NCBI GenBank assembly: GCA_014729795.1
Contig: WJJI01000014.1
Coordinates: 757 to 64,756, forward strand
Reading direction: 5' to 3'
Length of the DNA stretch: 64,000 nucleotides
DNA from: Candidatus Moraniibacteriota bacterium
Lineage (GTDB): Bacteria > Patescibacteriota > Minisyncoccia > CAIUEV01 > JAHKAQ01
The position numbers were made by a program, and so were the translations under genes. Shown here piece by piece: positions 12,166 to 47,775 of this stretch. Each line of letters begins with the position of its first letter. Positions within the stretch are counted from its first letter, which is position 1. Under the pieces are notes generated by a model. It was given only the letters and a program-made list of their open reading frames with translations, searched no databases and was not told where the DNA came from.

Positions 12166-12196
12166 ATCAAATAATTGTTTATTGAAAAACTAATCA

Positions 12197-14734: not shown

Positions 14735-14735
14735 T

Positions 14736-15236
14736 TTAATTGGCTTGTTTTAATTTGGCTCTTAAGCGTTGAATCTGGGCGGTTAATTTTTGCGACTTTT
14801 CCACAATTTCTTGAGACCGTTCAAGGTTTTTTTCAGATTGTTTTTTTGAAGAGCGCCAGGCAAGTAAAACCATAATTGTTGTAATCGGAGTAATGCCATC
14901 CAAAAAAGGAATAAAAGCCGCGATTAAATCTATTATTATGGGAAGAATTATCCTTAAAAATTTTTTCCAAAGATGCCTTCTCCAACCCATTTGCCACCAT
15001 ATCGGTATAGCAACAAACAGAAATTTTATTATCGGGGAAATACCCACATCCAAGGGGGGAGGCAAAAGGTCGGTAAATTCTGACATAACTGCGAACATCA
15101 AGGCGATTATAAAGATAGTATCGTTATACTGTTGGGCCTTGTCGAATAGTTTTTTCGCTTTTGCTTCAAGTTTCTTTTGAACCGATTGGTTACGCAATAT
15201 CAATTTCAGAATTCTTTGGTTTGTTGGGACAGCCAT
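14736..15236 (-). CDS. Small integral membrane protein (3 predicted TM helices), T4SS operon member
   Basis: 166-aa ORF with hydrophobic segments IFIIALMFAVM, ISPIIKFLFVAIPIWW and ILPIIIDLIAAFIPFL. Its stop abuts the VirB6-like start. Confidence 0.5.
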   Translation of the reverse strand: MAVPTNQRILKLILRNQSVQKKLEAKAKKLFDKAQQYNDTIFIIALMFAVMSEFTDLLPPPLDVGISPIIKFLFVAIPIWWQMGWRRHLWKKFLRIILPIIIDLIAAFIPFLDGITPITTIMVLLAWRSSKKQSEKNLERSQEIVEKSQKLTAQIQRLRAKLKQAN

Positions 15237-15261
15237 TTTTAAAATCAGCGCTTACTTTATT

Positions 15262-18925: not shown

Positions 18926-19114
18926 TTGTTTTAATAAACTAAAGAGTATCTACTAAAAAAGATAATTCAAAATGATGTTGACAAAGACGCAACAACAATT
19001 TTTACAAAAAAGCAAAAAGTGTTCAAATTTGAGTCGGGTTGCTTGTTTGTAAAGTTTTTTCCCGGGGGTAAGTATGCTTTGTCTTTTTTAACCGGCTTCT
19101 ACCTACTTTAAAAT

Positions 19115-19408
19115 TTAATAATTGTGGGTTTGAGCGTAATTCAAAGAAGCGACCACGGCTTGAGCGATTTTTTGACTAGAATAGTTTTGATCAATATCTG
19201 ACCTTAATTTAAATTTTTTTATGGCTTTAATATCTACTTTTTGCTTGGTTAGCAAAGCGGCAATTTCCTTTAAAAGCCGGGTGGATAAATCACGTTTATC
19301 CTTCCAAACCGATCGGGCTTCAAGCTTGCCCTTATTAAGTAGCTCTAAAACGACCTCGGAATTTTTTATTTTTATGATTAAGTCCATGATATTCTTGCTT
19401 TTAATCAA
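19115..19408 (-). CDS. Small protein resembling the N-terminal half of TsaB/YeaZ (97 aa); otherwise hypothetical
   Basis: MDLIIKIKNSEVVLELL…RDLSTRLLKEIAALLTKQKVDIKAI loosely parallels the TsaB N-terminal pattern (ILAIDTS…VALL…HS..LLP.I..LL). The GPGSFTG motif is missing. Confidence 0.3.
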   Translation of the reverse strand: MIKSKNIMDLIIKIKNSEVVLELLNKGKLEARSVWKDKRDLSTRLLKEIAALLTKQKVDIKAIKKFKLRSDIDQNYSSQKIAQAVVASLNYAQTHNY

Positions 19409-19559
19409 ATTTTAGTTATTATACAATAAAAGTAAAGTAGCTTTTGGAAAATAATGCATGGTTGCGAAAATTTCATTTTTTGATGATTTTTGGCTAATGT
19501 TGGCAAAAAATCTTACAATATACTTTAAAATGGAATTTGCGGTAGTCGATTTATTTTTC

Positions 19560-19725
19560 AGAGGTTCCCAAACAAAATAGAAGCGATTGAAAATGGCCTC
19601 ACCAGCCGTTTGAGCTTCCGGAAACGCTGATCCGAATAAGCCGGCGAAAAAGAGTCCAATAATTTGGAAAGCTAAGTGGAACCGCCCAATCCGGGTCTTA
19701 GCGTTTATTTAAATTACTGGATTTT
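19560..19725 (+). promoter_or_regulatory. Candidate T-box leader/attenuator upstream of thrS
   Basis: AAGUGGAACCGCC resembles the T-box core AGGGUGGNACCGCG in 9 of 13 positions. It is embedded in a GCUAAG…CUUAGC hairpin followed by GUUUAUUU. The upstream CUCACCAGCC contains the Thr codon ACC followed by A, and an AGAGG element lies further upstream. Confidence 0.25.
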
Positions 19726-19790
19726 TTTATTTTCGTAAACCTTTAGCGGCTATCTTGTTAACAAGTTCAAATAATGATTAAACTTATAAA

Positions 19791-21569
19791 ATGAATCAAA
19801 AAACCGGCAAAACTAAAAAATCAGAGTCAAATCGGGAGACTTTGCGTCATTCTACCGCTCATGTTTTAGCCAAAGCAATATTGGAATTATTTCCTAAAAC
19901 CAAAGTTGCCATTGGCCCTGCCATTGATCATGGTTTTTATTATGACTTTGAGTTTGTAAAGCCGATAGCTCAAAAGGACTTGCCCAAAATAGAAAAAAGA
20001 ATGAAAAAGATCATTAATCAGAATTTGAAGTTTAAAAAAAAGCAAATCTCCGTTCAAGCGGCGTTAAAGCTTTTTAAAAAATTGAATCAGCCCTACAAAG
20101 TGGAACTAATCAAAGAGCTTAAGCGTCACGAAAAGGTCGAAAAAGTAACCGTCTACCAATTAGGCGATTTTCAAGATTTATGTCGAGGCCCTCATCTGGA
20201 ATCAACCGGTAAAATTAATGCTCAAGCTATCAAATTAACCGAATTAGCCGGCGCTTATTGGCAAGGAGATGAAAAAAACAAGATGCTTACCCGAATTTAT
20301 GGCGTGGTTTTTGCAACCAAAGCGGCTTTAAAAAAACATCTAGAAATGTTGGAGCAAGCAAAAAAGCGCAATCACCGCAAGCTTGGCAAAGAACTGGAAT
20401 TATTTGCGATCTTCCCGGAAATCGGCCAGGGCTTACCGGTTTGGCTGCCTAACGGGTACACAATCAGACGTGTTTTAGAGGATTATATGTTAAAACTGGA
20501 AAAAAGTTATGGCTATGAACATATCTTAACACCCGTGATTAATCGCAAAGAACTATTTGAAACCTCGGGTCACCTCGAGTTTTATCAAGATTCTATGTAC
20601 ACTCCGTTGGAAATTGACCGGCAAACCTTTTATCTCAAGCCCATGAACTGCCCGGCCGGTATGATGGTTTACAAAATGAAGCCTAGAAGCTACAAGGATT
20701 TACCGGTGAAAATGGGAGAACTCGGCACGGTTTATCGTTATGAACAATCGGGAGAACTGCACGGTTTACAAAGAGTTAGGGGCTTTACCCAAAATGATGC
20801 CCATATATTTTGTACTCCGGAACAGCTGGAACAAGAATTTATGGAAGTAATCGAATTATTTGAAATCTTTTTTAAAAATGTTGGTTTTCATGAATATAAG
20901 TACCGTTTATCGCTTCGAGATGAAGACAGCTCCAAGTACGTGGGCGATAAAGACCGCTGGGAATGGGCGCAAAACGTGATGAGAAAAGTGCTTAAAAAAA
21001 ACAAAGTAGACTTTTATGAAGAACCGGGAGAAGCCGCTTTTTACGGACCCAAAATTGATGTTCAGGCCGTCAATGTTTTTGGTAAAGAAGATTCAATCGG
21101 TACCAACCAGATCGATTTTAATTTGCCTGAAAGGTTTAACCTTCATTACATTGATGAAACCGGCTCCAAAAAACAGCCTTTTGTGATTCACCGGGCTTTG
21201 ATCGGATCTTTTGAAAGATTTTTTGCTTTTTTTATCGAACACCACGCCGGCGCGTTTCCGATCTGGCTATCAGCTTTACAAGTCATGATCATTCCGGTCT
21301 CGGATAAATATTTAAGTTATGCCCAAAAAGTGGCCAAAAAGCTAAAACAAGAAGACATCAGAGTAAAAATTGACTCTTCAGCCGAGTCCCTGGGCAAAAA
21401 AATCAGAACCAATCAAAAGCAAAAAATCCCTTACATGCTAATTGTTGGAGATAAAGAAGCCGATCAAGAAAAGGTAGCGGTTAGAACGCGAGATCAGGGT
21501 GATATGGGCGCGATAAAATTGGCTAAATTTATTCGGGAAATAAAAGCCAAGCTGGCAAAATTTCAATAA
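19791..21569 (+). CDS. thrS: Threonyl-tRNA synthetase (lacks the N-terminal TGS domain)
   Basis: Class II motifs. HSTAHV zinc/editing-domain motif near the N-terminus. RNHRKLGKELELF. A C-terminal anticodon-binding domain. At 592 aa it is shorter than the usual ~640 aa. Confidence 0.9.
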   Translation: MNQKTGKTKKSESNRETLRHSTAHVLAKAILELFPKTKVAIGPAIDHGFYYDFEFVKPIAQKDLPKIEKRMKKIINQNLKFKKKQISVQAALKLFKKLNQPYKVELIKELKRHEKVEKVTVYQLGDFQDLCRGPHLESTGKINAQAIKLTELAGAYWQGDEKNKMLTRIYGVVFATKAALKKHLEMLEQAKKRNHRKLGKELELFAIFPEIGQGLPVWLPNGYTIRRVLEDYMLKLEKSYGYEHILTPVINRKELFETSGHLEFYQDSMYTPLEIDRQTFYLKPMNCPAGMMVYKMKPRSYKDLPVKMGELGTVYRYEQSGELHGLQRVRGFTQNDAHIFCTPEQLEQEFMEVIELFEIFFKNVGFHEYKYRLSLRDEDSSKYVGDKDRWEWAQNVMRKVLKKNKVDFYEEPGEAAFYGPKIDVQAVNVFGKEDSIGTNQIDFNLPERFNLHYIDETGSKKQPFVIHRALIGSFERFFAFFIEHHAGAFPIWLSALQVMIIPVSDKYLSYAQKVAKKLKQEDIRVKIDSSAESLGKKIRTNQKQKIPYMLIVGDKEADQEKVAVRTRDQGDMGAIKLAKFIREIKAKLAKFQ

Positions 21570-22663
21570 TGAAAAACGTTTTTCTTAAAACTTTTGGTTG
21601 TCAAATGAATTTTTCAGACACCGAAAGAATTACCAATCAATTAATACAATCCGATTATCAATTAAAGTCGGATTTTGAATCAGCCGATCTCGTTATTATT
21701 AATACCTGTGGTGTTAGAGAAACTGCTGAGAATCGGGCCATGAGCCTAGCTCACAAAATTCGCCGTCAAAAACCCAAAGTCAAAATAATCATTACCGGTT
21801 GTCTAGCTAATCGTCCCGACATTCAAAAAAAGATTGGAGCCAAGGCTGATTTGTTTTTAGGCATTCAACAATTGTTTTTTTATCTAAAGCCGGCTAAACA
21901 ATGTCCCGAGAGCCAAACAGGCCAATCAAACAATTCTGATTCGTATCTAGCAATTCAACCCAAATATCAGCATAACCGGCAAATTTTAGTCCCGATTATG
22001 ACTGGCTGTAATAACTTTTGCAGTTACTGTGTGGTGCCTTATGCTCGCGGTCGAGAGTTTTCAAGAAGCAAAGCGCAAATTTCAGCGGAAATTGCTCAAG
22101 CCGTCAAACAGCAAGATCTCCAAAGCGTGGTTTTATTAGGCCAAAATGTTAATAGCTACCGCGACCCAAACAACGAAACTGGTTTTGGTTTTCCGGAGCT
22201 TTTAGCCAAGCTCGCCCGGACTTATCCTAAAATCAAATTCAGTTTCTTAACTTCTCACCCAAAAGATTTTTCTCAAAACCTTATTCGGGTAATTAAAAGC
22301 AATCCCAATGTTTCTCGATCCATTCACTTGCCGGTTCAGGCCGGTAGCGACAAAATTCTAAAAGCCATGAATCGTCCTTATACTAAAAAACAGTATTTGT
22401 CTTTAGTGGCCGAAATCAAAAAGCAACTGCCGGATGTGATTCTCTCAACCGATGTCATTGTGGGATTTCCGGGTGAGACTCGAGCCGATTTTTCTCAAAC
22501 AATCGATATTTTTAAGCGGGCCGGTTTTCATTCAGCTTATATCAACAAGTACTCGCCCAGACCGGGCACTGCCGCATATAAATTGCAAGACCCGATTTCG
22601 CAAAAAGAAAAAAGACGCCGAGAGCAAGTTTTAAAACAAACCCTTGAACGCATAAAGGCTTAA
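21569..22663 (+). CDS. MiaB-family radical SAM methylthiotransferase (short form; no obvious C-terminal TRAM extension)
   Basis: N-terminal MTTase domain (FGCQMNFSDTE, INTCGVRE) and radical SAM CNNFCSYCVVPYARGRE. The start overlaps the thrS stop by 1 nt. Confidence 0.8.
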   Translation: MKNVFLKTFGCQMNFSDTERITNQLIQSDYQLKSDFESADLVIINTCGVRETAENRAMSLAHKIRRQKPKVKIIITGCLANRPDIQKKIGAKADLFLGIQQLFFYLKPAKQCPESQTGQSNNSDSYLAIQPKYQHNRQILVPIMTGCNNFCSYCVVPYARGREFSRSKAQISAEIAQAVKQQDLQSVVLLGQNVNSYRDPNNETGFGFPELLAKLARTYPKIKFSFLTSHPKDFSQNLIRVIKSNPNVSRSIHLPVQAGSDKILKAMNRPYTKKQYLSLVAEIKKQLPDVILSTDVIVGFPGETRADFSQTIDIFKRAGFHSAYINKYSPRPGTAAYKLQDPISQKEKRRREQVLKQTLERIKA

Positions 22664-22676
22664 AATTAAAATCAGC

Positions 22677-23792
22677 TTATTTTAAATCGCGAGCGTGTTT
22701 TTGAATAAAGTTTAAAATGTGTTTTTTAAAATTTTTTTGACTAAATGATTGAGCGTGGTTCGCGATTATTTTAGGATTAAAATTTATTTTCTCGAATTCA
22801 TGCACAGCCTTTATAATGCCTGCCGGGCTCTGATCATGAAAAAAAATACCGGTTTTGCCCGAAACAACCGTTTCGGTTGCTCCTCCCTGGCCATAAGCGA
22901 TAACGGGTCGCCCGCAAGCCATGGCTTCAAGCGGCACCAAACCAAAATCTTCCTCTTGAGGGTAAATTAAAGCTTTGGCTTTTTGATAAACTCGAGTCAA
23001 ATCCGCTCCGGAGCTGCTTAAGCGACCCAGAAATTCGATGTTTGGACCTGCAATTTTTTTTAATTTTTTTAATTCCGGCCCGCTACCGACAATCTTTAGT
23101 TTTTTCTTAAGTCGGTTAAAAGCTTGAATTCCAAGATCAAATTTTTTGTATGGTACTAGTCGACCAACCATTAAATAATAACCTTGATCCGAATCGGGTT
23201 GTTTTTTTAGCGGTTGAAAATTTTCCAAAAAAACCGGCGGATGAATCACCGTGGAATCGGTTTTGTAGTATTTTTTGATTCTTTTTTGCACCAGTCTTGA
23301 GTTGGCGATAAAGTGATCCACTCTTTTTGCCGCCATTTGATCCCAAAGACGAATGTAATTCATTCCCACCGGTACTAATTTTTTGATGATTTTGGGATAA
23401 AGATGAAATTCTCGAGTGTATTTATGGCAATCATCCCAGGCGTAACGCATCGGAGTATGACAGTAGCAAATGTGCAAAGCGTTGGGTTTGGTTATCACTC
23501 CCTTGGCGTAACTGGATGAATCGGAAAGCACCACGTCGTAGTAGGATAAATCAAATTGTTCAATAGCCATAGGCATGAGAACCGGAAAGAAGTGATGCTC
23601 GCTGCGAGAAAAGGGGATTTTTTGTAAAAAAGAAGTGATAATTTCTTTTTTTTGAAAAGCTTTACTTAAAGCCGATTGATTGTGTACCAGGGTATAAATT
23701 GGCGCGTTAGGAAATAACTCGCAAAAACTTTCCAAGACCCTTTCCGCTCCTCCGTATTGAATTAAATAATCATGAACCAAGGCAATTCTCAT
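22677..23792 (-). CDS. Glycosyltransferase family 4
   Basis: GLVPLEAMACGRPVIAYGQGG motif and GT-B architecture. Confidence 0.75.
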   Translation of the reverse strand: MRIALVHDYLIQYGGAERVLESFCELFPNAPIYTLVHNQSALSKAFQKKEIITSFLQKIPFSRSEHHFFPVLMPMAIEQFDLSYYDVVLSDSSSYAKGVITKPNALHICYCHTPMRYAWDDCHKYTREFHLYPKIIKKLVPVGMNYIRLWDQMAAKRVDHFIANSRLVQKRIKKYYKTDSTVIHPPVFLENFQPLKKQPDSDQGYYLMVGRLVPYKKFDLGIQAFNRLKKKLKIVGSGPELKKLKKIAGPNIEFLGRLSSSGADLTRVYQKAKALIYPQEEDFGLVPLEAMACGRPVIAYGQGGATETVVSGKTGIFFHDQSPAGIIKAVHEFEKINFNPKIIANHAQSFSQKNFKKHILNFIQKHARDLK

Positions 23793-23804
23793 ATATATAT
23801 TTAT

Positions 23805-25268
23805 TTATTCAACTTTTCTTTTCCTAAAAATCGCTAAAGGGGTTTTTAAAATAATAGCGATATCCATCCAAAGCGACCAGTTTTCCATATAATAAACGTC
23901 TAAACTCACCTCCGCGTCAAAATCCAGGTCGCTTCGTCCCGAAATCTGCGCCAAGCCGGTAATACCAGGCTTTATGTAAAACATTCTTTGCTGGTCATAA
24001 CTGTATTTCTCAACCTCATAGCTCATGTGTGGTCGATAACCCACCACGCTCATGTCGCCTTTTAAAACATTAAAAAATTCAGGCAGCTCATCAAGCGAAT
24101 AACGGCGTAAAGTTTTACCCAAACGAGTTACGCGAGGATCGTTTTTTATTTTATGCAAAGGGCTGCCGCGGCGAGTGTTTTTGTTTTTATCCCGCTCAAG
24201 TTTTTTCAGGACTTGATTCCCGGCTTTTGTGCCAAATTCGCCATCGCAAAGATCGGCGCGCATAGTTCTAAATTTATAAAAAACAAATTTTTGCTTGCGA
24301 TAACCACAACGATAATCTTTGTAAATTATTGGACCGGGTGAATCAAGTTTAATTAAAATAGCAATCATAATATACAGCGGAGCAAACACTAAAACAAACA
24401 AACTAGCGAAAATAATATCAAAAGCTTTTTTCAATACGCGCCCCCAACCATCAAGCGCGGTTCGATTAAGCTCGATTAATGGAAATCCCGCCAACTCTCG
24501 AATATTGATATTGGTAGCATGAGCCTGAAACAAATTAGGCACGTATTTAAAATCGATTTTAAAAATGTCGCTGAAACGCACCAGCATATTGATCTTTTGT
24601 TTATGTAAATTAGGATCGCAATTGATAATCTCATCAACGCCCTTTTTGTCTTTAATTTTTTTCAGCTTTTCCCAACTTATGTTTTCGTTATAATAACCAA
24701 TCACTGAATATCCTAAACCCGGTCTTCTCTCAAACAATTGTTTAATTGTTTCTCCGATTGGATTGTGACCTATCAATAGGACGCGATGAACCCCGACGCC
24801 TTTAGTGCGAGCTAAATGGTTTTGAAAAAGCCTAATCACGGTTCGGATAAAAGAAGCCGCGAAAATTGTCAACAACCAAGCCGATAAAATGATAAATCGA
24901 GAGGACAATAATTCTCGATTAAAAAAGAGAGTGATAATTAAAACCATTAAAGCCGTGGAAGTAGCCATAAAAATTTTTCTTATTTCTCTCAGTTTCGGTC
25001 GATTAGCTTTCATGGAGTATAAACCCTCCAGAGTGAAAATAAAAACCACAAAAAGCGCGATCCACCAAGAAGCAACAAAATAGTTTTGAAAACCGGCTTC
25101 AACCACGGTAGTGCGGCTAAAAACTTGACCAAAGTAAGGATGAGATCGAATGTAATAACTTAAAATAATCGAGCCCACGATTAGCAAATAATCGATAGGA
25201 ACCAAAATTACGTTAAAAAAAATTTCTGATTTTTTCATAAATTTAATTAGGAAGTTGTAAAAAATCAA
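23805..25268 (-). CDS. Polyprenyl-phosphate hexose-1-phosphate transferase (WbaP/CpsE-like initiating sugar transferase)
   Basis: Four N-terminal TM helices, then a C-terminal bacterial sugar-transferase domain containing YIKPGITGLAQISGRSDL. Confidence 0.85.
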   Translation of the reverse strand: MIFYNFLIKFMKKSEIFFNVILVPIDYLLIVGSIILSYYIRSHPYFGQVFSRTTVVEAGFQNYFVASWWIALFVVFIFTLEGLYSMKANRPKLREIRKIFMATSTALMVLIITLFFNRELLSSRFIILSAWLLTIFAASFIRTVIRLFQNHLARTKGVGVHRVLLIGHNPIGETIKQLFERRPGLGYSVIGYYNENISWEKLKKIKDKKGVDEIINCDPNLHKQKINMLVRFSDIFKIDFKYVPNLFQAHATNINIRELAGFPLIELNRTALDGWGRVLKKAFDIIFASLFVLVFAPLYIMIAILIKLDSPGPIIYKDYRCGYRKQKFVFYKFRTMRADLCDGEFGTKAGNQVLKKLERDKNKNTRRGSPLHKIKNDPRVTRLGKTLRRYSLDELPEFFNVLKGDMSVVGYRPHMSYEVEKYSYDQQRMFYIKPGITGLAQISGRSDLDFDAEVSLDVYYMENWSLWMDIAIILKTPLAIFRKRKVE

Positions 25269-25591: not shown

Positions 25592-25998
25592 ATTTTCGGC
25601 CGGCCTAGAGGAAAGTCCGGACATAATTAAGGGGTAGTGGGTAACGCCCACCTCTTTTGAGGGCAACTTTAAAAGACGGGAAAGTGCCGCAGAGACTATA
25701 CTATCCAGTCGGCTTAAGCTGACTGGAAAAAGGTGAAAAGTAAACCGGTGTTTTAGTGGTTATTACCTTAAAGCTACGGTTTTCGCCCGCCGGCAACGGT
25801 GACGCGTGGCAAACCCTACCTTATGCAAGGCCGTGTCCGGTTCCAAGCCTGGTTAAACAGTAACGCTTTTTAACCAAGCTGTTTAGCTGGGCTGGGACCG
25901 GAAGAGCCGCTTTGAGCTTTGTGGCAACGCAAAGCCTAGATAAATAGCCACGATTCAATTTTTGAATACAGAATCCGGCTTATAGTTTTGGCCGATGT
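25592..25998 (+). ncRNA. rnpB: RNase P RNA (bacterial type A)
   Basis: P4 strands GAGGAAAGUCCGGAC and ACAGAAUCCGGCUUAU are present. P1 pairs UCGGCC at the 5' end with GGCCGA at the 3' end. GGUAACGCC (P10/11-like) and other conserved blocks are also present. Confidence 0.85.
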
Positions 25999-26281: not shown

Positions 26282-28570
26282 GTGAATATAGAAAAAATAA
26301 AAACAATCGCTACTTCAGCAACCCTGATTATTATAGGAATTTTTTTTGTATTACCTGCTTCCGCCTCGGCTCTGACCTCTTTTTCTTTTGATGTGCCGGA
26401 AGGGCAGGGCGCCTCCAATAATGAATTTTATACCGGACGCTGCGTGCGAGCCGATGTATTACTAGATACAGATGGACACGATGCTGGTGGAGCCGATTTG
26501 ATAATCAACTATTCGAATACTGACATTCAAATCGTGGAAAGCGACTGCGCGACTCCGGCAACCACCATTTACGAAGGAGCCTCGGAAGCCTCAGGTGATG
26601 AACTTTTTGATAACCATATTTTTAATAATGTTAATCCCTCAAGCATAACCTTGGGAGCCTATAATAATTTTGGCAATGTTTATAATGGCTCTGGAGTTTA
26701 CGCTCATTTTTACTTTTTAGTTTTATCTCAATCTGGTAGTTATGATCTGGATTTTGATTTTACTCTCGGCAACACCCTGGATTGCAACCTATCCGAAGCT
26801 GGAACAGGCGCTGACATCCTTGAGCAGGCAAATGACTATACTTTAAATTTAGTTCCTGATCCGATTGGGGACCTGCCCTACATAACCGATCAAACACCAG
26901 CCGACGGAGCGACAGATGTTGCTGTAACTTCCAATGTTTCTTTAAGAATCAATGATGATGCTTCAGGCGTAGATATCGCTAATACAACCATCACCTTAGA
27001 TGGGATTAATTATACAAGCAGTGGCCCGAATTCTTTTAGTTATACCTGTCATACTACTAATTTTAATCGAGTAGATTATTGTGACATTACTATAAACCCC
27101 TCAAGTAATTTCAATTACGGCGCTCTTTATCTGGTTGATGTGGACACCTACGACCTTGGGGAACCCACGGCAAATCATCTAAGCGTGAGCTATTCTTTTA
27201 CCACTGAAACAGATAACGACTCGCCATATATTTATAACCTTAATCCCGGGTCCGGGGCAACAAATGTTGCTACAAACAGCAATATAAGTTTCAATATTGG
27301 CGATATCGCTAACCCTGGTGGTTATCCCGGTTTAGGAGTTGATTTGTCTAGTATTCAAGTGGTTGTTTCCGCTCCAGGCTGGGGCAGTCAAACCTATATC
27401 AACGGAGATTCCGAATTTAACGCTATTGCTAACAGCGCCAACGACTATGGAGATGTATATGATTATAGTATTGAAATTAATCCGGAAAGCGATTTTCCTC
27501 AAAACACCATAGTAAGCATTCAGGTCGTTGCGGATGATTTGAGTTCACCCGCCAATGTTTTAAACACTTCCTATTCTTTCACCACCACTGATACCGATCA
27601 ACCAATTTGTTCTAACTTCTCCCCGGTAAAAAACTCCGCCGCTATGAGTTCCAATGGTAATATAATCTTTGAATGCACCGACAGCGGCAGCGGCATCAAT
27701 ATTGATAGCTTATCCGTGCTCTTAGACGGTAATGTTTACACCTCTAACGGAGCAAATACTTTTGATTACTCCGGGGATGCTTCTGCCTATACAATTACCA
27801 TAGATCCCGTAAACGAAATAGTCAGTCAGTATGCTTTTGAAGTAGTGATTGACGTTAATGATTTTAACAACAATTCGGCGCGTTATTCATATGGTCTAGC
27901 TGCCGGCACCGGAGCTGCAACTTGCGAAGAGTGCGAAGAATGCGAAGAATGCGATGATTGCGATCAAGAATGCGAGCCAGAAACCGAAACGATCATTAAG
28001 TACATTGAAAAAGAATCAACTGATTATAAAGATGGAAATTGCCAAGACTTAGAATCATCAGACACCAGCCCAAGCCAAAACCTTACAGAGTCCGCATCCG
28101 AAAAATCCATTTTTATAAAAACAACCGATCCAACATCATTTACTTTAGAAAAAATCAATGAGATGTTAGTTGGCGGTGAAAATATCGAGGTTAATTCAAC
28201 GGAAGATCAAGTAATTTTTACTGGCACAGCATCGCCTGACAGCTCTTTTACACTAATGATAGAATCTCTGGCAACAAAAAAACAGGGGATTGGTTCTACC
28301 TTGATTTTAAACGGTATGGCCGATCAAACCGGCAACTGGAAGATAGCTATAAAAAACGTATTCACCCAAGGCATGCATGATGTTTCTTTGATTTTAAACA
28401 ACCGGGAAGATGGCAGTCAATTAGATAAAAAAAGGCTTAGTCAATTTGAAGTCAAAACAAAAAAAGAAATATGCTGGCTTTGTATCGTTATTATTTTTCT
28501 AGTTCTTTTAAACATTATTCAGTTTTTAACCAGAAACTCAAAAAAAAATAAAAATGTCGCAAATCAATAA
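26282..28570 (+). CDS. Large cell-surface protein with SbsA/Ig-like repeat domains, a CEECEEC cysteine-acidic repeat and a C-terminal TM anchor
   Basis: Signal peptide. Several ~90-aa repeats of the form ITDQTPADGATDVAVTSNVSLRINDDASGVDIANTTITLDGINYTSSG, which are SbsA-type Ig-like domains. CEECEECEECDDCDQECE at residues ~548-565. A hydrophobic C-terminal anchor (ICWLCIVIIFLVLLNIIQFL). Confidence 0.6.
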   Translation: MNIEKIKTIATSATLIIIGIFFVLPASASALTSFSFDVPEGQGASNNEFYTGRCVRADVLLDTDGHDAGGADLIINYSNTDIQIVESDCATPATTIYEGASEASGDELFDNHIFNNVNPSSITLGAYNNFGNVYNGSGVYAHFYFLVLSQSGSYDLDFDFTLGNTLDCNLSEAGTGADILEQANDYTLNLVPDPIGDLPYITDQTPADGATDVAVTSNVSLRINDDASGVDIANTTITLDGINYTSSGPNSFSYTCHTTNFNRVDYCDITINPSSNFNYGALYLVDVDTYDLGEPTANHLSVSYSFTTETDNDSPYIYNLNPGSGATNVATNSNISFNIGDIANPGGYPGLGVDLSSIQVVVSAPGWGSQTYINGDSEFNAIANSANDYGDVYDYSIEINPESDFPQNTIVSIQVVADDLSSPANVLNTSYSFTTTDTDQPICSNFSPVKNSAAMSSNGNIIFECTDSGSGINIDSLSVLLDGNVYTSNGANTFDYSGDASAYTITIDPVNEIVSQYAFEVVIDVNDFNNNSARYSYGLAAGTGAATCEECEECEECDDCDQECEPETETIIKYIEKESTDYKDGNCQDLESSDTSPSQNLTESASEKSIFIKTTDPTSFTLEKINEMLVGGENIEVNSTEDQVIFTGTASPDSSFTLMIESLATKKQGIGSTLILNGMADQTGNWKIAIKNVFTQGMHDVSLILNNREDGSQLDKKRLSQFEVKTKKEICWLCIVIIFLVLLNIIQFLTRNSKKNKNVANQ
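27923..27976 (+). repeat. 9-bp tandem repeat (tgcgaagar x3 plus degenerate copies) encoding the Cys-Glu-Glu repeat
   Basis: tgcgaagag tgcgaagaa tgcgaagaa tgcgatgat tgcgatcaagaa tgcgag, read directly from the sequence. Confidence 0.85.
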
Positions 28571-28572
28571 AC

Positions 28573-29259
28573 ATGTTATTCATAAAAAATAACCCGGTAA
28601 AAAAAATTTTTATATTTTTTTTGTTAATCATTACCTTTTTAGGTGTCTTTTACTATCTTTACACTTTTAAAAAAGACCAAAATCAAAAACAAACAAATAA
28701 AACCCAAGCAAAAATTATTATCAAAGGCTCAATTATTGATTTGCTAAATCAAAAACCATTAGAAAACGTTAGAGTTCAGAGCAAAAAAATTAATTTTTTA
28801 ACCTCTCAAACAGATAAAAATGGAGAATTCGAGATAAAAACCTACCCTAACGATATTTTATTGATTTCCGGATTAGATTTTTATGAACAAATCGAAATTC
28901 CAATTGAAAACAGAAAAAATATCCAAATAGCGCTAAACTCAAAAGCGCTGGCTTTTTTTAGAAAAATTGAAAAAGCCGAGGAGCAGCGGCAATATCGAAA
29001 AATATATCCTTTTATAGTAAATTCAATAGATGAAAATCATTATTTAGCCAAAAAGAATAACTGGCGTGATAACATAGTGCAAAAAGGTTTCTTAGGACCA
29101 AAAACAGTTAAAATAGATCGAGAAGTTCAAATAAAAGAAAATCAATACCAAACAAGCATTCGGTATGTTTTTCAGAAAGAGAATCAAGATTTAATCAAAA
29201 AATATTCTTTTGTTTTTAATAACGATCTAAAATATTTAGATCAAACTATTGATAACTAA
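28573..29259 (+). CDS. Membrane-anchored hypothetical protein with a CarboxypepD_reg-like beta-sandwich segment
   Basis: N-terminal TM helix. The segment IIKGSIIDLLNQKPLENVRVQS…TDKNGEFEI resembles carboxypeptidase-regulatory-like domains. The start lies 3 nt after the upstream stop. Confidence 0.4.
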   Translation: MLFIKNNPVKKIFIFFLLIITFLGVFYYLYTFKKDQNQKQTNKTQAKIIIKGSIIDLLNQKPLENVRVQSKKINFLTSQTDKNGEFEIKTYPNDILLISGLDFYEQIEIPIENRKNIQIALNSKALAFFRKIEKAEEQRQYRKIYPFIVNSIDENHYLAKKNNWRDNIVQKGFLGPKTVKIDREVQIKENQYQTSIRYVFQKENQDLIKKYSFVFNNDLKYLDQTIDN

Positions 29260-29876
29260 TCGCCTACTTTACCATAATTAGCGTTAGCTTTTGTTACGTC
29301 CATAGAGTTAACTTGATGATTTTCATCAACATCGGCTCTGTTGTCGGAAACTCCTGAGTCAATCACACCCCATTGTGATTGAATATAGGAAATGTCTAAA
29401 GAGTTAACCATATTATCGCCGGTTCCATAAGCATCACCAACCAGTAGGGGATTGGTCCCGGCATCGGTAAAGTCAATGTTGTTTAGTCCGCTTACCAGAG
29501 TCACGGTCTTCTTTAATTTTAAATGGGAATAACCATTGACTGCTACATCATAAGTGCCCGGGGTTATACCTGTTAATGGCAAGGCTGAGCTATAAATTCC
29601 ATTATTATCGGTATCAATAGGACCGAATGTGTCTATAGGAGTAGTGCTGCCTACGTTTCTGACTTCAATATAGGCTTGAGTTGAATTGTTGCCGGTTAAA
29701 GGCACTCGTTTTTCCGGAATAGCGGTAAAGTTAATGGTAACGTTAGCTAACACCTCCGCGGTTATAGTAACGGTTTCATCAAGTGGATTTGCTTTGGTTT
29801 GATTATAAACAAAAAAAGCCATGAAAATGGTAAAAATCAAAAAAAGAGTTAAAAATAATATTTTTATTTTTTTCAT
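29256..29876 (-). CDS. Secreted protein with an N-terminal Ig-like/CarboxypepD_reg-like domain and a C-terminal dockerin-like repeat
   Basis: Signal peptide. C-terminal LDISYIQSQWG…DNRADVDENHQVNSMDVTKANANYG fits the dockerin calcium-binding repeat pattern (D-x-N/D-x-D-x-x-V-N-x-x-D). Confidence 0.4.
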   Translation of the reverse strand: MKKIKILFLTLFLIFTIFMAFFVYNQTKANPLDETVTITAEVLANVTINFTAIPEKRVPLTGNNSTQAYIEVRNVGSTTPIDTFGPIDTDNNGIYSSALPLTGITPGTYDVAVNGYSHLKLKKTVTLVSGLNNIDFTDAGTNPLLVGDAYGTGDNMVNSLDISYIQSQWGVIDSGVSDNRADVDENHQVNSMDVTKANANYGKVGD

Positions 29877-30040
29877 TTGTGTGGTTAAATTATCAGCAAC
29901 TACAACCAGCCCCCAAGGCCATCTGTTTATTTAATAATATTATAATTTATTTTATAATTATTGTCCAAATCCATAGGCCTGTTCCTAAAAACAATTATCG
30001 GTTATAATGCAAACAATCATTAAGCCAACAAACAAAAAAA

Positions 30041-31597
30041 ATGCAAACGCTATCCAATACTACAATTTATTTGATTTTATCGGTAATACTAGGCTTTTCT
30101 TTGTTTTTGCCAAAAACCAGCCAAGCGGCTGAAATTGGCAACGCCAGCGATAAAATGACAAGTCAACATGGCAATCATGCCTCCGGAGCAATTAGTGTTG
30201 GAACTCAGTGGGACCTAACTGATGGTTTGGCCGCCCTTGCCAATACCGATTATTTAATTATTCATGATGGAGACAGCCCAGCCGGCACGACTGATTCGCT
30301 TTGTGTTTGGTTTGATGTCAGCGGTTCAGACGCGGCGCCGGCAGCCTGTGTTTCCGGTTCGGATCAGCAAGCAGAAGCAACCCTCAATGGCCTAGCCAAC
30401 AACGGAGAAGCTGCCGCTTCCATAGAAGCGGCCATCAATAGCGCTAATCCTGAATTTCATGTCACCGCTGAGATCCACACTCTTAACGATAACCGCGTGC
30501 AGTTAACCAATGATCAAGCGGGCGCGAATGGCAACGTTACCATTACCGAGGTTATTGATAGCCAAGATATTGTCATTCAAGGCTTGGATGGCGGAGGTTC
30601 CAGGGCCGATCATGATATCCGGTTTTCAACGCCCTCGGGAGTAGACTCTCCCGCGGATAATATTGTTATCGCTTTTCCAACAGGCTGGGACCTTTCAAGC
30701 TTAACCGCAGCTGATGTTGCTTTGGCTCAAGGCGATTTAGGTGATTGTAATAATCCTAGCATTGTTTTTAATGATAAAATTTTGCAATCCGGAGCTCCTG
30801 GGGCAGGAATTTGGGGGGTTTCGTTTTCAGGGCAACGAATCACCCTCTCCGCTCCCATAGACACGTCAACCGGAGAAATTATCACGGGTAGATGTGTTCA
30901 AATTAGAATTGGACTCAATGCCGGCGGAGCGGCCCAAATCGTTAACGCTAACGCTCAAGGCCCGGCTGGAGCCGACCAAGGTGATAGTGAATTAATTAAT
31001 ATAGGCGGCACCTTTGGCGATAAAGGCAATATCGCGGTCGCCCTTACCAACCGAGATATTATTTTTATTCAGGGTCGAGTAGAGCCAATTTTTAACTTTG
31101 ATGTTTTGCAAAATTTATGCGATTTAGGAGTTCTTGACGTGGCTTCTACTAAAACTTGTTCGGTAATATTTAATGTGGATACTAATGCGGGTAGCGGAGT
31201 CTCGGTTGAATATTCAGCGCCCAACTTATTAACCAATGGCGCCAGTCAGGAAATTGATCCAATCTCCAACGGCGACGGCAACGAAACTCCAGCCAACCCC
31301 GGAACCGAACAGTTTGGCATGAGAGCCTATGTATCCAACACTCCTGTCAATCCGATTTCGATTAACGATGGAGCGGCAACCGGAGACTATAACGGCGCCG
31401 GCTATGCCATGTATGTTAGCGGTGGAGCAGCTTACGTGCCGGACACAGCTCAAGATATGGCCGATATCTTAGCGACCAGCGTTGGTGGAATTGACAACAA
31501 TGAAGTCACTATTGAATTTATGGCTGACATTCAACCCTTAACTCCGGCTGGTGTTTACACAACAGATTACACTATAATTGCGACCGCGACTTATTAA
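30041..31597 (+). CDS. Secreted Gly/Ala/Asp/Thr-rich surface protein (hypothetical; possibly S-layer-like)
   Basis: Signal peptide (…KTSQAAEI). Low hydrophobicity and beta-rich composition. No catalytic motif. Confidence 0.45.
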   Translation: MQTLSNTTIYLILSVILGFSLFLPKTSQAAEIGNASDKMTSQHGNHASGAISVGTQWDLTDGLAALANTDYLIIHDGDSPAGTTDSLCVWFDVSGSDAAPAACVSGSDQQAEATLNGLANNGEAAASIEAAINSANPEFHVTAEIHTLNDNRVQLTNDQAGANGNVTITEVIDSQDIVIQGLDGGGSRADHDIRFSTPSGVDSPADNIVIAFPTGWDLSSLTAADVALAQGDLGDCNNPSIVFNDKILQSGAPGAGIWGVSFSGQRITLSAPIDTSTGEIITGRCVQIRIGLNAGGAAQIVNANAQGPAGADQGDSELINIGGTFGDKGNIAVALTNRDIIFIQGRVEPIFNFDVLQNLCDLGVLDVASTKTCSVIFNVDTNAGSGVSVEYSAPNLLTNGASQEIDPISNGDGNETPANPGTEQFGMRAYVSNTPVNPISINDGAATGDYNGAGYAMYVSGGAAYVPDTAQDMADILATSVGGIDNNEVTIEFMADIQPLTPAGVYTTDYTIIATATY

Positions 31598-31606
31598 ATA
31601 TTTTAG

Positions 31607-32560
31607 ATGATCAACAAAAGCCTGAGCCTATTGTTTTTAGCGGTTTTCATTTGGATTGGATCCGCTACCTTGGTCAAAGCTATCGGATTCACCCCGGTTT
31701 CAGTTGATATCAAAGCGGCTCCGGGACAATCCTACCAAGATTCAATTAAAGTCATTAACAGAAGCGAGAAAGTTATTTATTACCATATAATCCTAAAAGC
31801 TTTTCGCGCCAGTCAAGCCAAGGCTGGCTCGCCAAAATTTTCAGGCAACGAGCTGAGCGATCAAGAAAAAGAGTTTTTAAATTGGATTAAAGTTCAAGAT
31901 CAAGTAATTCAGTTACAACCAAAACAAGTCAAACGAGTTAAATATCAAATTACTGTTCCGGAAGAGGCTCAAGCGGGGGGTTATTATTTTGGAATTTTAT
32001 TTTCAAAAACCGGACAAGATGTTAACAAACAAGCCTTAGGCATGAGAGGCTTAAGCGGCCCGATTTTTTTAATGACTGTAACCGGAAATTTAATTTATGA
32101 TTTTCAATTAAAAGAATTCCGGTTATCGCTTGACCCAGAGCATCAAAACTTAACCTGCTCGGTAAATCTTGAAAACAAAGGCAATGTTCATGTCAAACCT
32201 CAAGGAAAAATTCAATTTAAACAAAACGGTCTATTTTTAAACAACCAGCAGTTAATTGAAAGCAGAGATTTTAATATTCTATCAGGCGACCACTCCGGCA
32301 GCATTTTACCCAAAACCAATCGAAAATGGGTTTTTGACTTTGCAGTAAAAAGCTTGCCTTTATTTTGGACAAAATATCAATGCCAGCTTGATATTGTTTA
32401 TCAAGATATCCACATCAATCAAAAACGCGATACTACCTATATTAATTGGCGATCCATCATCGCTATTTTAACAATAATCGCAATTCTTTCTCTGGTAATC
32501 CTGACCATTAAATGGCTAGCAATGATCAAAGCCGGAAAGGAAATCTCATCTCAAAGGTAA
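31607..32560 (+). CDS. Secreted protein with a C-terminal TM anchor (weak DUF916-like cell-surface protein resemblance)
   Basis: Signal peptide, FTPVSVDIKAAPGQSYQDSIKVIN block, GGYYFGILFS, and a C-terminal TM helix (IIAILTIIAILSLVILTI). Confidence 0.4.
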   Translation: MINKSLSLLFLAVFIWIGSATLVKAIGFTPVSVDIKAAPGQSYQDSIKVINRSEKVIYYHIILKAFRASQAKAGSPKFSGNELSDQEKEFLNWIKVQDQVIQLQPKQVKRVKYQITVPEEAQAGGYYFGILFSKTGQDVNKQALGMRGLSGPIFLMTVTGNLIYDFQLKEFRLSLDPEHQNLTCSVNLENKGNVHVKPQGKIQFKQNGLFLNNQQLIESRDFNILSGDHSGSILPKTNRKWVFDFAVKSLPLFWTKYQCQLDIVYQDIHINQKRDTTYINWRSIIAILTIIAILSLVILTIKWLAMIKAGKEISSQR

Positions 32561-32668: not shown

Positions 32669-33694
32669 ATGAACAAGCTTAATTTTTGGCAAAAACAGCC
32701 TGAAGGTTCGTCAAAAAACGCGCTTTTCAATGCTGATGATTTAAATATCAGCCCACAAGCTTTTCAAAAAGCCGAGCAAGAAGCTAGAAAAAAAAGAAAA
32801 AAACGAGGACTAATCAAAACCTCTGTTAGATGGCTACTTGCTATTGTTATTATGGGGATTTTAATAATGTTTGGCTTTTTTTACTACCAGCAAAATCAAA
32901 AAGCTCAAGCTCTGGATAAGGAGCTTTATCTAAAATCTCGAGATTTCGCGGTTTTTGTTGAATTGGTAAATGATCTGGCCACTGAAAAAACCCCAAAAAC
33001 TAACGGAGAAAGCAAAGATTTATACATCAAAAGAATGGAAAAAGAAAAACAAGATATTGAGCAAACCCTAACCAAGCTCGAAGAAATTAAGAGTAAAGAC
33101 CAAGAAAACCAGTGGTATTATTTAGAATCGCATAGCAAACTAAAAGATTTTTATAATCAAGCCCAGCAACTTTTAACCGAGTATTACCAATTATATACTT
33201 ACGAAATCAAATCTGAGCAACACGCGGTCAATTTGGAAGCGCAAAAAAACAAATTTGAAATTTTACACAAAACAACCGAAAACGTCAACGAACTTAAAGG
33301 ACCAACCGATGAATTTATGCAAGCGGTTGACCAATCTATTCAAGAATTGCAAAAGCTTCAGCCACCGACCGAGCTGCAAGCATATCATAATAAATCCATA
33401 ACTTTTATGGAGTCTTATTCTCTGATTCTGCATCGAATATCTCAAGGGTTAGAAAAGAAAATAAATGGAGCCAACGAATTAGAGTATTTAAAAGCGGTTC
33501 AGGTTTATAATGAATTTGTGGAAGACGGCTCCACCGTTAAAAATCTGGAAAAAATTAGAGAATACTATTACCAAGAAATTCAAGATAAATTCAAAAATTT
33601 ACGAAGACAAGCGGATGAAACCAAAGAACTGCTTATCCGAGAAAGCGAGAAAACAGACGCTGAAATAGCCAGAATTAATATTGAACACTGGTAA
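32669..33694 (+). CDS. Membrane-anchored coiled-coil hypothetical protein
   Basis: One N-terminal TM helix (LLAIVIMGILIMFGFFYY), then a long helical E/K/Q-rich ectodomain. Confidence 0.45.
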   Translation: MNKLNFWQKQPEGSSKNALFNADDLNISPQAFQKAEQEARKKRKKRGLIKTSVRWLLAIVIMGILIMFGFFYYQQNQKAQALDKELYLKSRDFAVFVELVNDLATEKTPKTNGESKDLYIKRMEKEKQDIEQTLTKLEEIKSKDQENQWYYLESHSKLKDFYNQAQQLLTEYYQLYTYEIKSEQHAVNLEAQKNKFEILHKTTENVNELKGPTDEFMQAVDQSIQELQKLQPPTELQAYHNKSITFMESYSLILHRISQGLEKKINGANELEYLKAVQVYNEFVEDGSTVKNLEKIREYYYQEIQDKFKNLRRQADETKELLIRESEKTDAEIARINIEHW

Positions 33695-34598
33695 AATGGC
33701 TGAAGTCAAAGAGGCAAAACCTAAAATTATAGCAGTTGTTGGTCCAACCGCTTGCGGTAAAACTCAACTTGCCGTTAAACTGGCTAAAAAATTTCAAGGA
33801 GAAATTGTCTCGGCCGATTCAAGGCAAATTTATAAAGGCCTGGATATTGGCACCGGCAAAGACTTGGCTCTTTATGGCGACACCCCTTATCATTTAATTG
33901 ATATTGTTAAGCCCACTCGAAAATTTAGCTTAGCGCAATATCAAAAAAAAGCCTATAAGGCTATCAGTACAATTTTAAGCAACAATAAGCTTCCAATTAT
34001 GTGTGGCGGCGCCGGTTTATATGTTAAGGCCGTGGTCCGGGGGTTGCAACTACCTCAAGTCAAGCCGGATCAAAAACTCCGTAAGAAATTGGAAAAAGCT
34101 ACGCCTGAACAAAGAACCGCAATTCTTGAAAAATATCAAGCCGCCGACCAAATTGATTTAAAAAATCCACATCGAGTTATCCGAGCAATAGAAATCTGCA
34201 AAGCAGCCGGAGCAAATTTTTTTAAAACTAAAACACGAAAAAATCCCCAATATCGAACTTTGCAAATAGGCATCAAGTATTCAATTGATCAAATTAGAGC
34301 CAGAATTAAAACAAGAGTTAATCAATGGCTGGAGCAGGGTTTGATTAGCGAAGTCAAACAACTCCATGATCATGGCTTAAGTTTCAAGCGGCTTGAAGAG
34401 CTTGGTTTGGAATATCGATATGTAAGCTATTTTCTTGACAATAAGTTTGATTATCAAACCATGGTTGATAAATTAATTACCGGCACTGGCCAGTATGCCA
34501 AAAAGCAAATTACCTGGTTTAAAAAACAAAAAGGCATTTACTGGATAAAAAGTCCCGACAAGGCTGAAGAGTTAGTCGAGCAATTTTTACAAAAGTAG
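33681..34598 (+). CDS. miaA: tRNA dimethylallyltransferase
   Basis: P-loop IIAVVGPTACGKT and SADSRQIYKGLDIGTGK. Overlaps the upstream ORF by 14 bp. Confidence 0.9.
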   Translation: MNTGKMAEVKEAKPKIIAVVGPTACGKTQLAVKLAKKFQGEIVSADSRQIYKGLDIGTGKDLALYGDTPYHLIDIVKPTRKFSLAQYQKKAYKAISTILSNNKLPIMCGGAGLYVKAVVRGLQLPQVKPDQKLRKKLEKATPEQRTAILEKYQAADQIDLKNPHRVIRAIEICKAAGANFFKTKTRKNPQYRTLQIGIKYSIDQIRARIKTRVNQWLEQGLISEVKQLHDHGLSFKRLEELGLEYRYVSYFLDNKFDYQTMVDKLITGTGQYAKKQITWFKKQKGIYWIKSPDKAEELVEQFLQK

Positions 34599-34617: not shown

Positions 34618-34691
34618 AGCCAAGAATGGGGTTCGAACCCATGACCTGCGCGTTACGAATGCGCTGCTCTAGCCAGCTGAGCTATCTTGGC
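34618..34691 (-). tRNA. tRNA-Thr(CGU), CCA not encoded
   Basis: The reverse complement folds as a cloverleaf. Acceptor stem GCCAAGA/UCUUGGC. D stem GCUC/GAGC. Anticodon loop UUCGUAA, giving anticodon CGU. T arm AUGGG-UUCGAAC-CCCAU. Discriminator U. Position 31-39 is an A·C mismatch. Confidence 0.8.
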
Positions 34692-41652: not shown

Positions 41653-41738
41653 TGGTGCCGCGGGTGGGAGTCGAACCCACACGGGAAAATCCCACCAGCT
41701 CCTAAGGCTGGCGTGTCTGCCAGTTCCACCACCGCGGC
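41653..41738 (-). tRNA. tRNA-Leu(UAG), type II with long variable arm, CCA encoded
   Basis: The reverse complement is GCCGCGG…CCAGC-CUUAGGA-GCUGG…GUGGG-UUCGACU-CCCAC-CCGCGGC-ACCA. The anticodon is UAG. Confidence 0.85.
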
Positions 41739-44483: not shown

Positions 44484-44571
44484 TTGGAAACTTTTAGCGA
44501 TTATTTTCCCGGCATCATAAAACCCTCCTATTAAATTAACAGAATGAGTTAGAGTTTCAAGCTTTAATTTT

Positions 44572-46752: not shown

Positions 46753-46796
46753 AAAAAAATGATTTAATATTTCGTTTCGGATCCGAAATTAGTTTT

Positions 46797-47771: not shown

Positions 47772-47775
47772 AAAG

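Follow-up and report, generated by a model that had tools for sequence, protein, structure and literature searches.

A dockerin protein and a cohesin-bearing stalk protein beside Pam-type pilus genes in a Candidatus Moranbacteria genome: a possible non-covalent anchor for CPR pili

Bacteria of the Candidate Phyla Radiation (CPR) have a host-attached lifestyle in which surface appendages play a central part. Their Pam pili were recognised only in 2026 and the attachment of these pili to the cell is still a model. The stretch of DNA analysed here (the window) comprises 64,000 nt from the metagenome-assembled genome (MAG) of a Candidatus Moranbacteria bacterium (Parcubacteria group, Patescibacteria/CPR) with a tiny genome and raises the question of what a dockerin protein encoded next to a pilin might be doing in such an organism. 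We describe the region as a surface-appendage locus made of two gene pairs, one for a pilin and its chaperone and one for a dockerin protein and a stalk protein with a cohesin domain, and regard both pair assignments as highly probable. A more specific reading, to which we give slightly better than even chances, is that the dockerin protein is the base subunit of the filament and plugs into the cohesin on the membrane-anchored stalk, which is built of immunoglobulin (Ig)-like repeats. The locus contains the following open reading frames (ORFs):

26282–28570, + strand: 762-aa membrane-anchored stalk protein
28573–29259, + strand: 228-aa protein with a transmembrane (TM) segment and a CarboxypepD_reg-like domain
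29256–29876, − strand: 206-aa dockerin protein with a signal peptide, a short N-terminal strand, an Ig-like domain and a dockerin
30041–31597, + strand: 518-aa Pam-type pilin
31607–32560, + strand: 317-aa chaperone with two Ig domains and a TM anchor (WxLIP/PapD-like)

In a hydropathy scan, all five products have N-terminal hydrophobic signals. The 228-aa gene starts 3 bp past the stalk gene, the dockerin gene is convergent to the 228-aa gene with a 4 bp overlap, and the chaperone gene lies 9 bp downstream of the pilin gene. These ORFs, as well as a 9-bp repeat at 27923–27976 that encodes CEECEECEECDDCDQECE, lie exactly where the initial annotation had placed them, and its view of the 518-aa and 317-aa proteins as secreted or anchored agrees with the N-terminal signals of both and the C-terminal TM segment of the latter. 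Public annotation lists the 206-, 228- and 518-aa proteins as hypothetical and the 317-aa protein as 'DUF916 domain-containing'; an exact look-up of the 762-aa sequence in the public protein collection gave no match.

The 518-aa protein scores 78.7 bits (cut-off 55) on NF058581 (CPR_Pam_pilin_C, 'Pam pilus system pilin subunit'), on which P0002, a paralog from the same MAG, reaches 135.7 bits. By sequence, it consists of a signal peptide, an insertion of ∼ 140 aa, an N-terminal domain (NTD, aa ∼ 186–337), a linker (aa ∼ 338–349, RDIIFIQGRVEP) and a C-terminal acceptor domain (CTD, aa ∼ 350–518), and aligns with 97 two-domain pilins across both domains and the linker; 70 related loci were identified. 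Pfam gave no matches to this protein, and the equivalog model for PamT, the tip subunit, gave 44.4 bits against a cut-off of 240. The insertion (30188–30595, aa ∼ 50–185), which separates a conserved N-terminal segment from the NTD, is common only to P0002 and occurs in no other aligned pilin.

The 317-aa protein passes PF06030 (WxLIP_PGBD/DUF916; 36.2 bits vs. 27.3) and has a C-terminal TM segment (aa 278–310, hydropathy). Its AlphaFold2 (AF2) model, with a predicted local distance difference test (pLDDT) score of 69.7, has as best Foldseek matches the WxLIP structures 9i25 and 9i1y of Enterococcus faecium (E ∼ 1e-12), which it matches over both domains, followed by CfaA, CupB2, CsuC, EcpB and FimC (E from 1e-11 to 1e-7); since the TM-scores are 0.4–0.55, this is a match of fold class and not a precise superposition. 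Pfam detected neither DUF3324 in the 317-aa protein nor a WxL domain in any of six locus proteins. Homologs of the 317-aa protein are adjacent to the pilin in 67 of the 73 loci that hold a pilin relative, and all 75 complete homologs have a C-terminal TM segment. In the preprint that reported cryo-electron microscopy structures of CPR Pam filaments, the chaperones are PapD-like and held by a C-terminal TM helix (Troman et al., 2026; bioRxiv 10.64898/2026.03.03.709456). Judged by sequence, the 518-/317-aa pair would add to the Pam system a new member from a lineage on which the preprint laid no emphasis. With Pfam scores above the cut-off and WxLIPs as the best structural matches, Pam-type chaperones belong to the WxLIP/DUF916 family of Firmicutes, which suggests that WxL clusters and Pam pili descend from a common ancestor, a connection of which the preprint makes no mention.

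Does the 206-aa protein, then, end in a genuine dockerin? Two of its features matter here:

29259–29441, − strand: dockerin module, aa 146–206 (PF00404 match aa 153–194)
29736–29789, − strand: mature N-terminal strand NPLDETVTITAEVLANVT, candidate donor strand (pilin-linker profile)

The C-terminus, already noted as dockerin-like before any profile search, scores 21.8 bits on PF00404 (E = 2.3e-4), just below the cut-off of 22.9. Four orthologs score 26.7, 27.4, 21.8 and 21.4 bits, and one of the two that pass is 51% identical to the 206-aa protein. Because Dockerin_1 is the only Pfam match in each of the four tested orthologs, two of them above the cut-off, the resemblance is more than chance, and the dockerin-like label stands. 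The C-terminus also matches the dockerin end of CelK (NCBIfam), a dockerin profile from related loci matches the protein at E ∼ 1e-4, and the protein is homologous to the C-terminal half of L060_450 (E = 2.8e-14), the dockerin protein of a related pilus locus, L060. The second Ca2+ loop, DVDENHQVNSMD, is canonical and the first, GDAYGTGDNMVNSLD, is either degenerate or interrupted by an insertion; the same layout is found in L060_450 and in the orthologs.

The features of the 762-aa protein are as follows:

26366–26887, + strand: divergent cohesin domain, aa 29–202 (transitive homology)
26876–27901, + strand: three Big_5-type Ig-like domains, aa 199–308, 315–435 and 446–∼ 540 (self-phmmer)
27923–27976, + strand: 9-bp repeat encoding CEECEECEECDDCDQECE, an acidic (CxxC)n hinge (Tandem Repeats Finder and sequence)
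28181–28405, + strand: C-terminal Ig-like domain, aa 634–708 (p324N profile match, E = 5.6e-9)
28451–28540, + strand: C-terminal TM anchor, aa 724–753 (hydropathy scan)

The initial annotation had reasoned that a dockerin implies a cohesin partner. Such a partner exists, in the N-terminus of the 762-aa protein, but the direct search was empty and it was reached via intermediates. PF00963 gave no match to this domain at E ≤ 5 (aa 28–206) or E ≤ 0.01 (aa 29–202). A word-index homolog search with the same domain found no relatives, whereas an exhaustive phmmer search found 264. PF00963 is present in 29 of 35 short relatives that were aligned with the window domain (best E = 6.5e-12), and L060_1540, the closest locus relative of the 762-aa protein (E = 1e-31), scores 42.9 bits on it. 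A three-sequence profile (A3) had no cohesin match in the PDB, whereas the top PDB matches of a deeper profile that includes the window domain (A5) are cellulosomal scaffoldin cohesins; hhalign of the window domain against A2, the cohesin family of other pilus loci, gave 96.3% (E = 1.5e-9). In all loci with upstream sequence (L073, L074, L076/L077 and L078), an ortholog of the 206-aa protein is encoded immediately upstream of the 762-aa relative and on its strand; being adjacent in every such metagenome locus, the two families form a conserved gene pair. On this homology and gene order, the cognate cohesin for the 206-aa dockerin is predicted to be the N-terminal domain of the 762-aa protein.

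It could be argued that the supposed dockerin is an EF-hand-like Ca2+ tail with a stabilising or glycan-binding role and no cohesin partner, and that the 762-aa protein begins with an Ig- or jelly-roll-type adhesin domain for another ligand. The sub-threshold score and degenerate first loop of the 206-aa protein and the empty direct PF00963 search fit such a view, and the Southlakia authors speculated that host glycans are the target of a dockerin protein (PMC10633639). We nevertheless consider it improbable: the two families are strictly adjacent wherever upstream sequence is available, orthologs pass PF00404, homologs of the 762-aa domain pass PF00963 and, as described below, a single-chain relative of the pair divides exactly at the dockerin|cohesin junction. 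The essential Southlakia dockerin protein SEML1_0315 was rejected as an ortholog, being the product of a stand-alone gene beside a hydrolase and a tRNA.

The presence of a genuine cohesin and a genuine dockerin might also favour a cellulosome-like scaffold for several enzymes or adhesins, in which the cohesin protein would be a scaffoldin for dockerin proteins encoded elsewhere. The search covered one 64-kb contig of the genome, the homolog from L060 carries a pair of cohesins, and an adaptor-like protein with both domains is encoded in L063 and L071. Against this, cohesin and dockerin profiles found a single cohesin and a single dockerin in the window and no second copy of either; Pfam found no catalytic domain or carbohydrate-binding module in the locus proteins, the 206-aa protein having only an Ig-like domain beside its dockerin; and the dockerin proteins of 40+ related loci bear only Ig/FnIII or pilin domains. 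A scaffold of this kind is thus very improbable, and the cellulosome-style assembly considered possible in the initial annotation is not supported: the window has one cohesin, one dockerin and neither enzyme nor carbohydrate-binding module in the locus, and comparative genomics ties the pairing to pilus loci and not to polysaccharide degradation.

This tie emerged from a comparison of 46 non-redundant CPR loci from species-representative genomes, each with at least 4.5 kb of sequence downstream of the chaperone gene. Dockerin proteins are encoded in 35 of these loci and cohesin proteins in 34, all of which have both. Most often, the genes encode, in this order, a large protein with a pilin CTD at its end, one to four pilins, the chaperone, the dockerin protein and two cohesin proteins; the order chaperone–dockerin–cohesin–cohesin is kept in 34 of the 46 loci, in several CPR lineages. 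The dockerins are canonical double-loop modules (that of L001 scores 27.9 bits), the cohesin family is confirmed by Pfam and PDB matches, and C-terminal TM segments occur in 71 of the 78 cohesin proteins. Iterative profiles seeded with the window's 206-, 228- and 341-aa proteins or with the C-terminus of the 762-aa protein found nothing or almost nothing in the pilus loci, and seeds from L001 were needed.

In five loci (L025, L060, L064, L068 and L072), the dockerin protein is composed of a signal peptide, a pilin NTD, the linker, FnIII/Ig spacers and the dockerin, with neither an acceptor domain nor a TM segment. Such a protein could donate a strand without being able to take one up, as expected of a chain terminator. 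Other loci (L030, L032, L036, L041, L050 and others) encode CTD-less NTD proteins without a dockerin that have their own TM segment followed by CarboxypepD_reg modules, and in these loci dockerin and cohesin are both absent. One of these proteins, L030_1037, matches the dockerin protein L060_450 over aa 15–197 (E = 1.5e-24) and the cohesin protein L060_1540 over aa 725–1025 (46% identity over 300 residues, E = 7e-78). By sequence comparison this is a Rosetta stone relation, in which the single chain of L030 corresponds to the dockerin and cohesin proteins of L060 with the break at dockerin|cohesin. The window's pilin, chaperone, dockerin protein and stalk all have homologs in L060. Neither the placement of dockerins and cohesins in CPR pilus loci nor the evidence of fission is found in the preprint, the NCBIfam Pam models or the literature searched.

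From these observations a scheme of anchoring can be proposed. As in other filaments of this family, the 518-aa pilin would polymerise by donor-strand exchange, the linker strand of each subunit filling the open CTD of the next. The 206-aa protein would be the proximal, terminating subunit: its free N-terminal strand, NPLDETVTITAEVL, would complement the acceptor domain of the last pilin and, as it has no acceptor domain itself, growth of the filament would stop. Its Ca2+-type dockerin would plug into the distal end of the stalk, where the cohesin is followed by three Big_5 domains, the CxxC hinge, an Ig-like domain and the TM helix. The stalk probably has the 228-aa protein as a helper, and the joint would tether the pilus non-covalently to the cytoplasmic membrane. 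In the Pam system, PamT is a CTD-only tip and PamR, with an N-terminal strand, two FnIII domains and a TM segment, is the proposed terminator and anchor (bioRxiv 10.64898/2026.03.03.709456). The dockerin/stalk pair would do what has been proposed for PamR, with two polypeptides held together by cohesin–dockerin binding in place of one.

The candidate donor strand deserves a closer look. Short dockerin proteins open, directly after the signal peptide, with a strand like NPLTESISVSATVL, which in the 206-aa protein reads NPLDETVTITAEVL; most of them have a Pro/Gly-rich spacer behind the strand, which the 206-aa protein does not. The motif NPL-x-E-x-[IV]-x-[VI]-[ST]-A-x-V-L is common to the 206-aa protein and the dockerin proteins of distant loci. 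With a position-specific scoring matrix (PSSM) built from pilin linkers only, the best match in the 206-aa protein is at aa 33–44, a score reached by only 0.28% of background ORFs, and 16 of 46 dockerin proteins score above the 99th percentile of the background, mostly at the position of the N-terminal strand. In the controls, an internal Ig strand of the 762-aa protein scored 6.5 and the window's own pilin linker, RDIIFIQGRVEP, a poor 0.9. The PSSM was accordingly downgraded from proof of a donor strand: because the controls show its limited specificity, the resemblance of the N-terminal strand to a pilin linker is suggestive, and makes it a candidate donor.

The chief competitor of the tether is an independent display module, in which the pair, a self-contained plug and socket, would present the 206-aa Ig protein on top of the 762-aa stalk as an adhesin, its genes would be no more than a further surface gene set beside those for pilin and chaperone, and the pilus would be anchored in some other way. 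In its favour are the five closest relatives of the 206-/762-aa pair (L073–L078), which keep the dockerin–cohesin order among housekeeping genes, with pilin and chaperone genes absent within the available flanks; the pair can thus exist away from pilus genes. The N-terminal payloads of the 206-aa family vary between a short strand, a triple SxNY module and a pilin NTD, and the dockerin proteins of the closest relatives have a similar short strand or the SxNY module. The 206-aa protein, moreover, has no pilin NTD, and its strand motif is of limited specificity. These facts have to be set against the conserved order in 34 of the 46 loci, the pilin NTD–dockerin fusions without an acceptor domain, the distribution complementary to that of the TM-anchored NTD proteins together with the Rosetta stone relation, and the circumstance that the alternative payloads, the pilin NTD and the SxNY module, are themselves pilus-derived. 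On balance, we think it unlikely that display is the function of the pair, while treating this as the alternative to be taken most seriously.

Several observations weigh against the tether as proposed here. The 762-aa protein owes its cohesin assignment to transitive homology, Pfam giving no direct match, and the 206-aa protein is 1.1 bits short of the dockerin cut-off and has an imperfect first loop. The donor-strand argument rests on a 12-residue β-strand motif, and both PSSM controls speak for caution. The 206-aa protein lacks a pilin NTD, and its gene is on the strand opposite to that of both gene pairs. No CTD-only ORF for a tip pilin was found in the window, the closest relatives have no pilus genes nearby, and the AF2 model of the 518-aa pilin, made from a four-sequence alignment, has a pLDDT of 48, unusable for folds, with low pLDDT in the linker region. 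The full scheme is therefore rated only a little above even, well below the two pair assignments: although the payloads derive from pili, the stalk could serve as a general socket. For CPR bacteria at large, we see about an even chance that in a large share of the lineages a Pam-type pilus is held by a non-covalent, Ca2+-dependent cohesin–dockerin joint and not by a transmembrane terminal subunit; in this arrangement a CTD-less base subunit would bear the dockerin and a membrane-anchored Ig-repeat stalk the cohesin.

The stalk itself is much as the initial annotation had described it, a surface protein with a signal peptide (aa 5–36), Ig-like repeats (PF13205, E = 7.9e-11) and a C-terminal TM segment (aa 724–753), the two hydrophobic segments being recognised by the hydropathy scan; full-length homologs exist. 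Its C-terminal Ig-like domain (aa 634–708) is of a type present in the dockerin proteins of related loci. The repeat that precedes this part reads TGCGAAGAG TGCGAAGAA TGCGAAGAA TGCGATGAT TGCGATCAAGAA TGCGAG and was scored by Tandem Repeats Finder as 4.6 copies of period 9 with 90% matches (score 61). At the corresponding site, where the last Big_5 domain gives way to the C-terminal part, the relatives of the 762-aa protein carry a CPxCxxCxxC-type cluster whose length varies. To judge from these sequences, the Cys/acidic cluster is a hinge feature of the family and the window's repeat is an instance that has grown by three near-identical 9-bp units. Cross-linking of the hinge by disulfides or metal is plausible, if hypothetical, and the repeat might, as the initial annotation had suggested, vary in length by slippage. 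A ferredoxin-like reading of the CxxCxxCxxxC pattern was dropped, as the segment is extracytoplasmic and the CPxC-type clusters of the relatives vary in number.

The 228-aa protein has a TM segment at aa 7–33 and a CarboxypepD_reg-like domain (CarbopepD_reg_2, PF13715, 32.8 bits vs. a cut-off of 32.2). The cohesin protein L060_1540 and the single-chain anchor L030_1037 end in a fused TM–CarboxypepD_reg module of this kind, and the 228-aa protein is thus probably a membrane partner of the stalk.

The related loci offered some further observations. The S-x-N-Y-x-[ILV] triple module (∼ 60 aa) is N-terminal in small CTD-only, tip-like pilins (L060 7832–8755; also in L018, L025, L029, L030, L032, L036, L041 and L050) and in two dockerin proteins of the 206-aa family (L073 1427–2185 and L078 6900–7748). 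The adaptor-like protein with cohesin and dockerin, of 252 aa (L063 14634–15392 and L071 6089–6847), hints at multi-step docking in some lineages. A protein family that begins with ..NYQGRL.D..G.P..G.Y.F.F.LY.. is encoded by the gene that follows the cohesin gene downstream in three relatives (L073 5341–12273, 2310 aa; L075 2682–3339; L078 10453–10956) and may be the 'tail fibre-like' neighbour of the Pam preprint. Fifteen loci (L010, L016, L017, L021, L029, L030, L032, L036, L045, L048, L050, L051, L053, L058 and L060) are on contigs, some of 350–640 kb, from MAGs labelled 'uncultured Gammaproteobacteria', 'Eubacteriales' or 'Candidatus Methylomirabilis'; either these MAGs are mislabelled or misbinned, or the claimed restriction of the system to CPR does not hold.

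Around the surface locus, the window has the following features:

7405–9231, − strand: VirB4-like conjugation/type IV secretion system (T4SS) ATPase (NF045971, 360 bits)
9242–17292: its neighbours, including large 845-aa and 676-aa proteins without a family match
17615–25268: glycosylation genes, including an Agl23-like membrane protein (weak match)
21569–22663, + strand: miaB-like methylthiotransferase
22677–23792: GT4-family glycosyltransferase
23805–25268: polyprenyl glycosylphosphotransferase
25597–25998, + strand: class A RNase P RNA (RF00010, 146 bits)
32669–33694, + strand: 341-aa protein with one TM segment (aa 47–75) and a long, charged, coiled-coil-like region
33681–34598, + strand: miaA (TIGR00174, 212 bits)
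34618–34691 and 41656–41738, both − strand: tRNAs

The products of the miaB-like gene and miaA, which flank the surface locus, both act on tRNA A37. The 341-aa protein, encoded between the chaperone gene and miaA, matched no family and had no homolog in the related loci. A seemingly gene-free 1-kb region upstream of the 762-aa gene was dismissed as a regulatory or novel element, being occupied by the RNase P RNA gene. Residue Ser356 of PamA carries a modification (bioRxiv 10.64898/2026.03.03.709456) and, by analogy, the glycosylation genes just upstream of the locus may have a role in pilin glycosylation. The VirB4-like ATPase and its large neighbours probably form a patescibacterial T4SS cluster. 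The GC content falls to 0.27–0.29 at 18001–20000 and 44001–48000, compared with ∼ 0.37 for the window.

If the tether is real, it would explain why dozens of CPR pilus loci have conserved a pair of genes labelled 'hypothetical', and the biology of cohesins and dockerins would widen from enzyme scaffolding to filament anchoring. The joint would be predicted to be sensitive to Ca2+ and EDTA and potentially releasable, which fits the reported easy detachment of Pam pili. The stalk would act as a modular socket, and pili, or else the SxNY module and similar payloads derived from pili, could be mounted on it, exchanged or shed. Non-cellulosomal cohesin–dockerin modules are widespread; those of Patescibacteria would thereby be given their first function.

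Among known systems, the locus is closest to the Pam pili of Candidatus Mycosynbacter amalyticus (NF058581/NF058579), with which it shares a pilin CTD family scoring above the cut-off, the NTD–linker–CTD layout of the pilin as judged by sequence alignment, signal peptides on all parts, a PapD/FimC-like chaperone with a C-terminal TM segment, a CPR host and the absence of an usher. It differs in its host, which belongs to Moranbacteria in the Parcubacteria group and not to Saccharimonadia or Microgenomatia, and in having a single pilin with a 140-aa insertion. In place of a PamT-type tip and an RbmA-like, TM-anchored PamR with two FnIII domains, neither of which is recognisable, it has the dockerin protein and the cohesin–TM stalk; dockerin, cohesin and DUF916/WxL have no mention in the Pam preprint. 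The ATP-synthase genes of the Pam neighbourhood are not among the 26 window ORFs scanned with NCBIfam, which include thrS, miaB, miaA, metG, a histidine kinase and VirB4.

The WxL/WxLIP clusters of Enterococcus and Lactobacillus, with the architecture DUF916–DUF3324–TM (Hassan et al., 2023, PMC10599100; 9i25, 9i1y), resemble the chaperone side of the locus: WxLIPs have two Ig-like domains followed by a TM segment and insert a strand into their partner, and the 317-aa protein passes PF06030 and has WxLIPs as its best structural matches. The window differs in that DUF3324 is not recognised and that the partner is a polymerising pilin and not a WxL-domain protein, since the pilin has no Pfam matches.

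With the type I pairs of cellulosomes (scaffoldins ScaB, ScaC and CipA; PF00963/PF00404), the locus shares homologous domains and a canonical second loop, DVDENHQVNSMD; as in anchoring scaffoldins, the cohesin is on a cell-anchored protein. Unlike cellulosomes, the window has a single cohesin and neither enzymes nor carbohydrate-binding modules, the anchor is a TM helix and not SLH domains or a sortase, and the dockerin is carried on pilus-type modules, with filament tethering and not enzyme assembly as its proposed role.

Finally, the chaperone–usher pili (Pap, Fim, CFA/I and Csu) have a chaperone fold similar to that of the locus and would share with it the logic of donor-strand exchange, and PapH, a terminator subunit without acceptor function, is the analogue of the proposed base subunit. 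In the window's system, there is neither outer membrane nor usher and the chaperone is membrane-anchored; the donor strand would be the linker between the two pilin domains, and the filament would be held to the cell through cohesin–dockerin binding.

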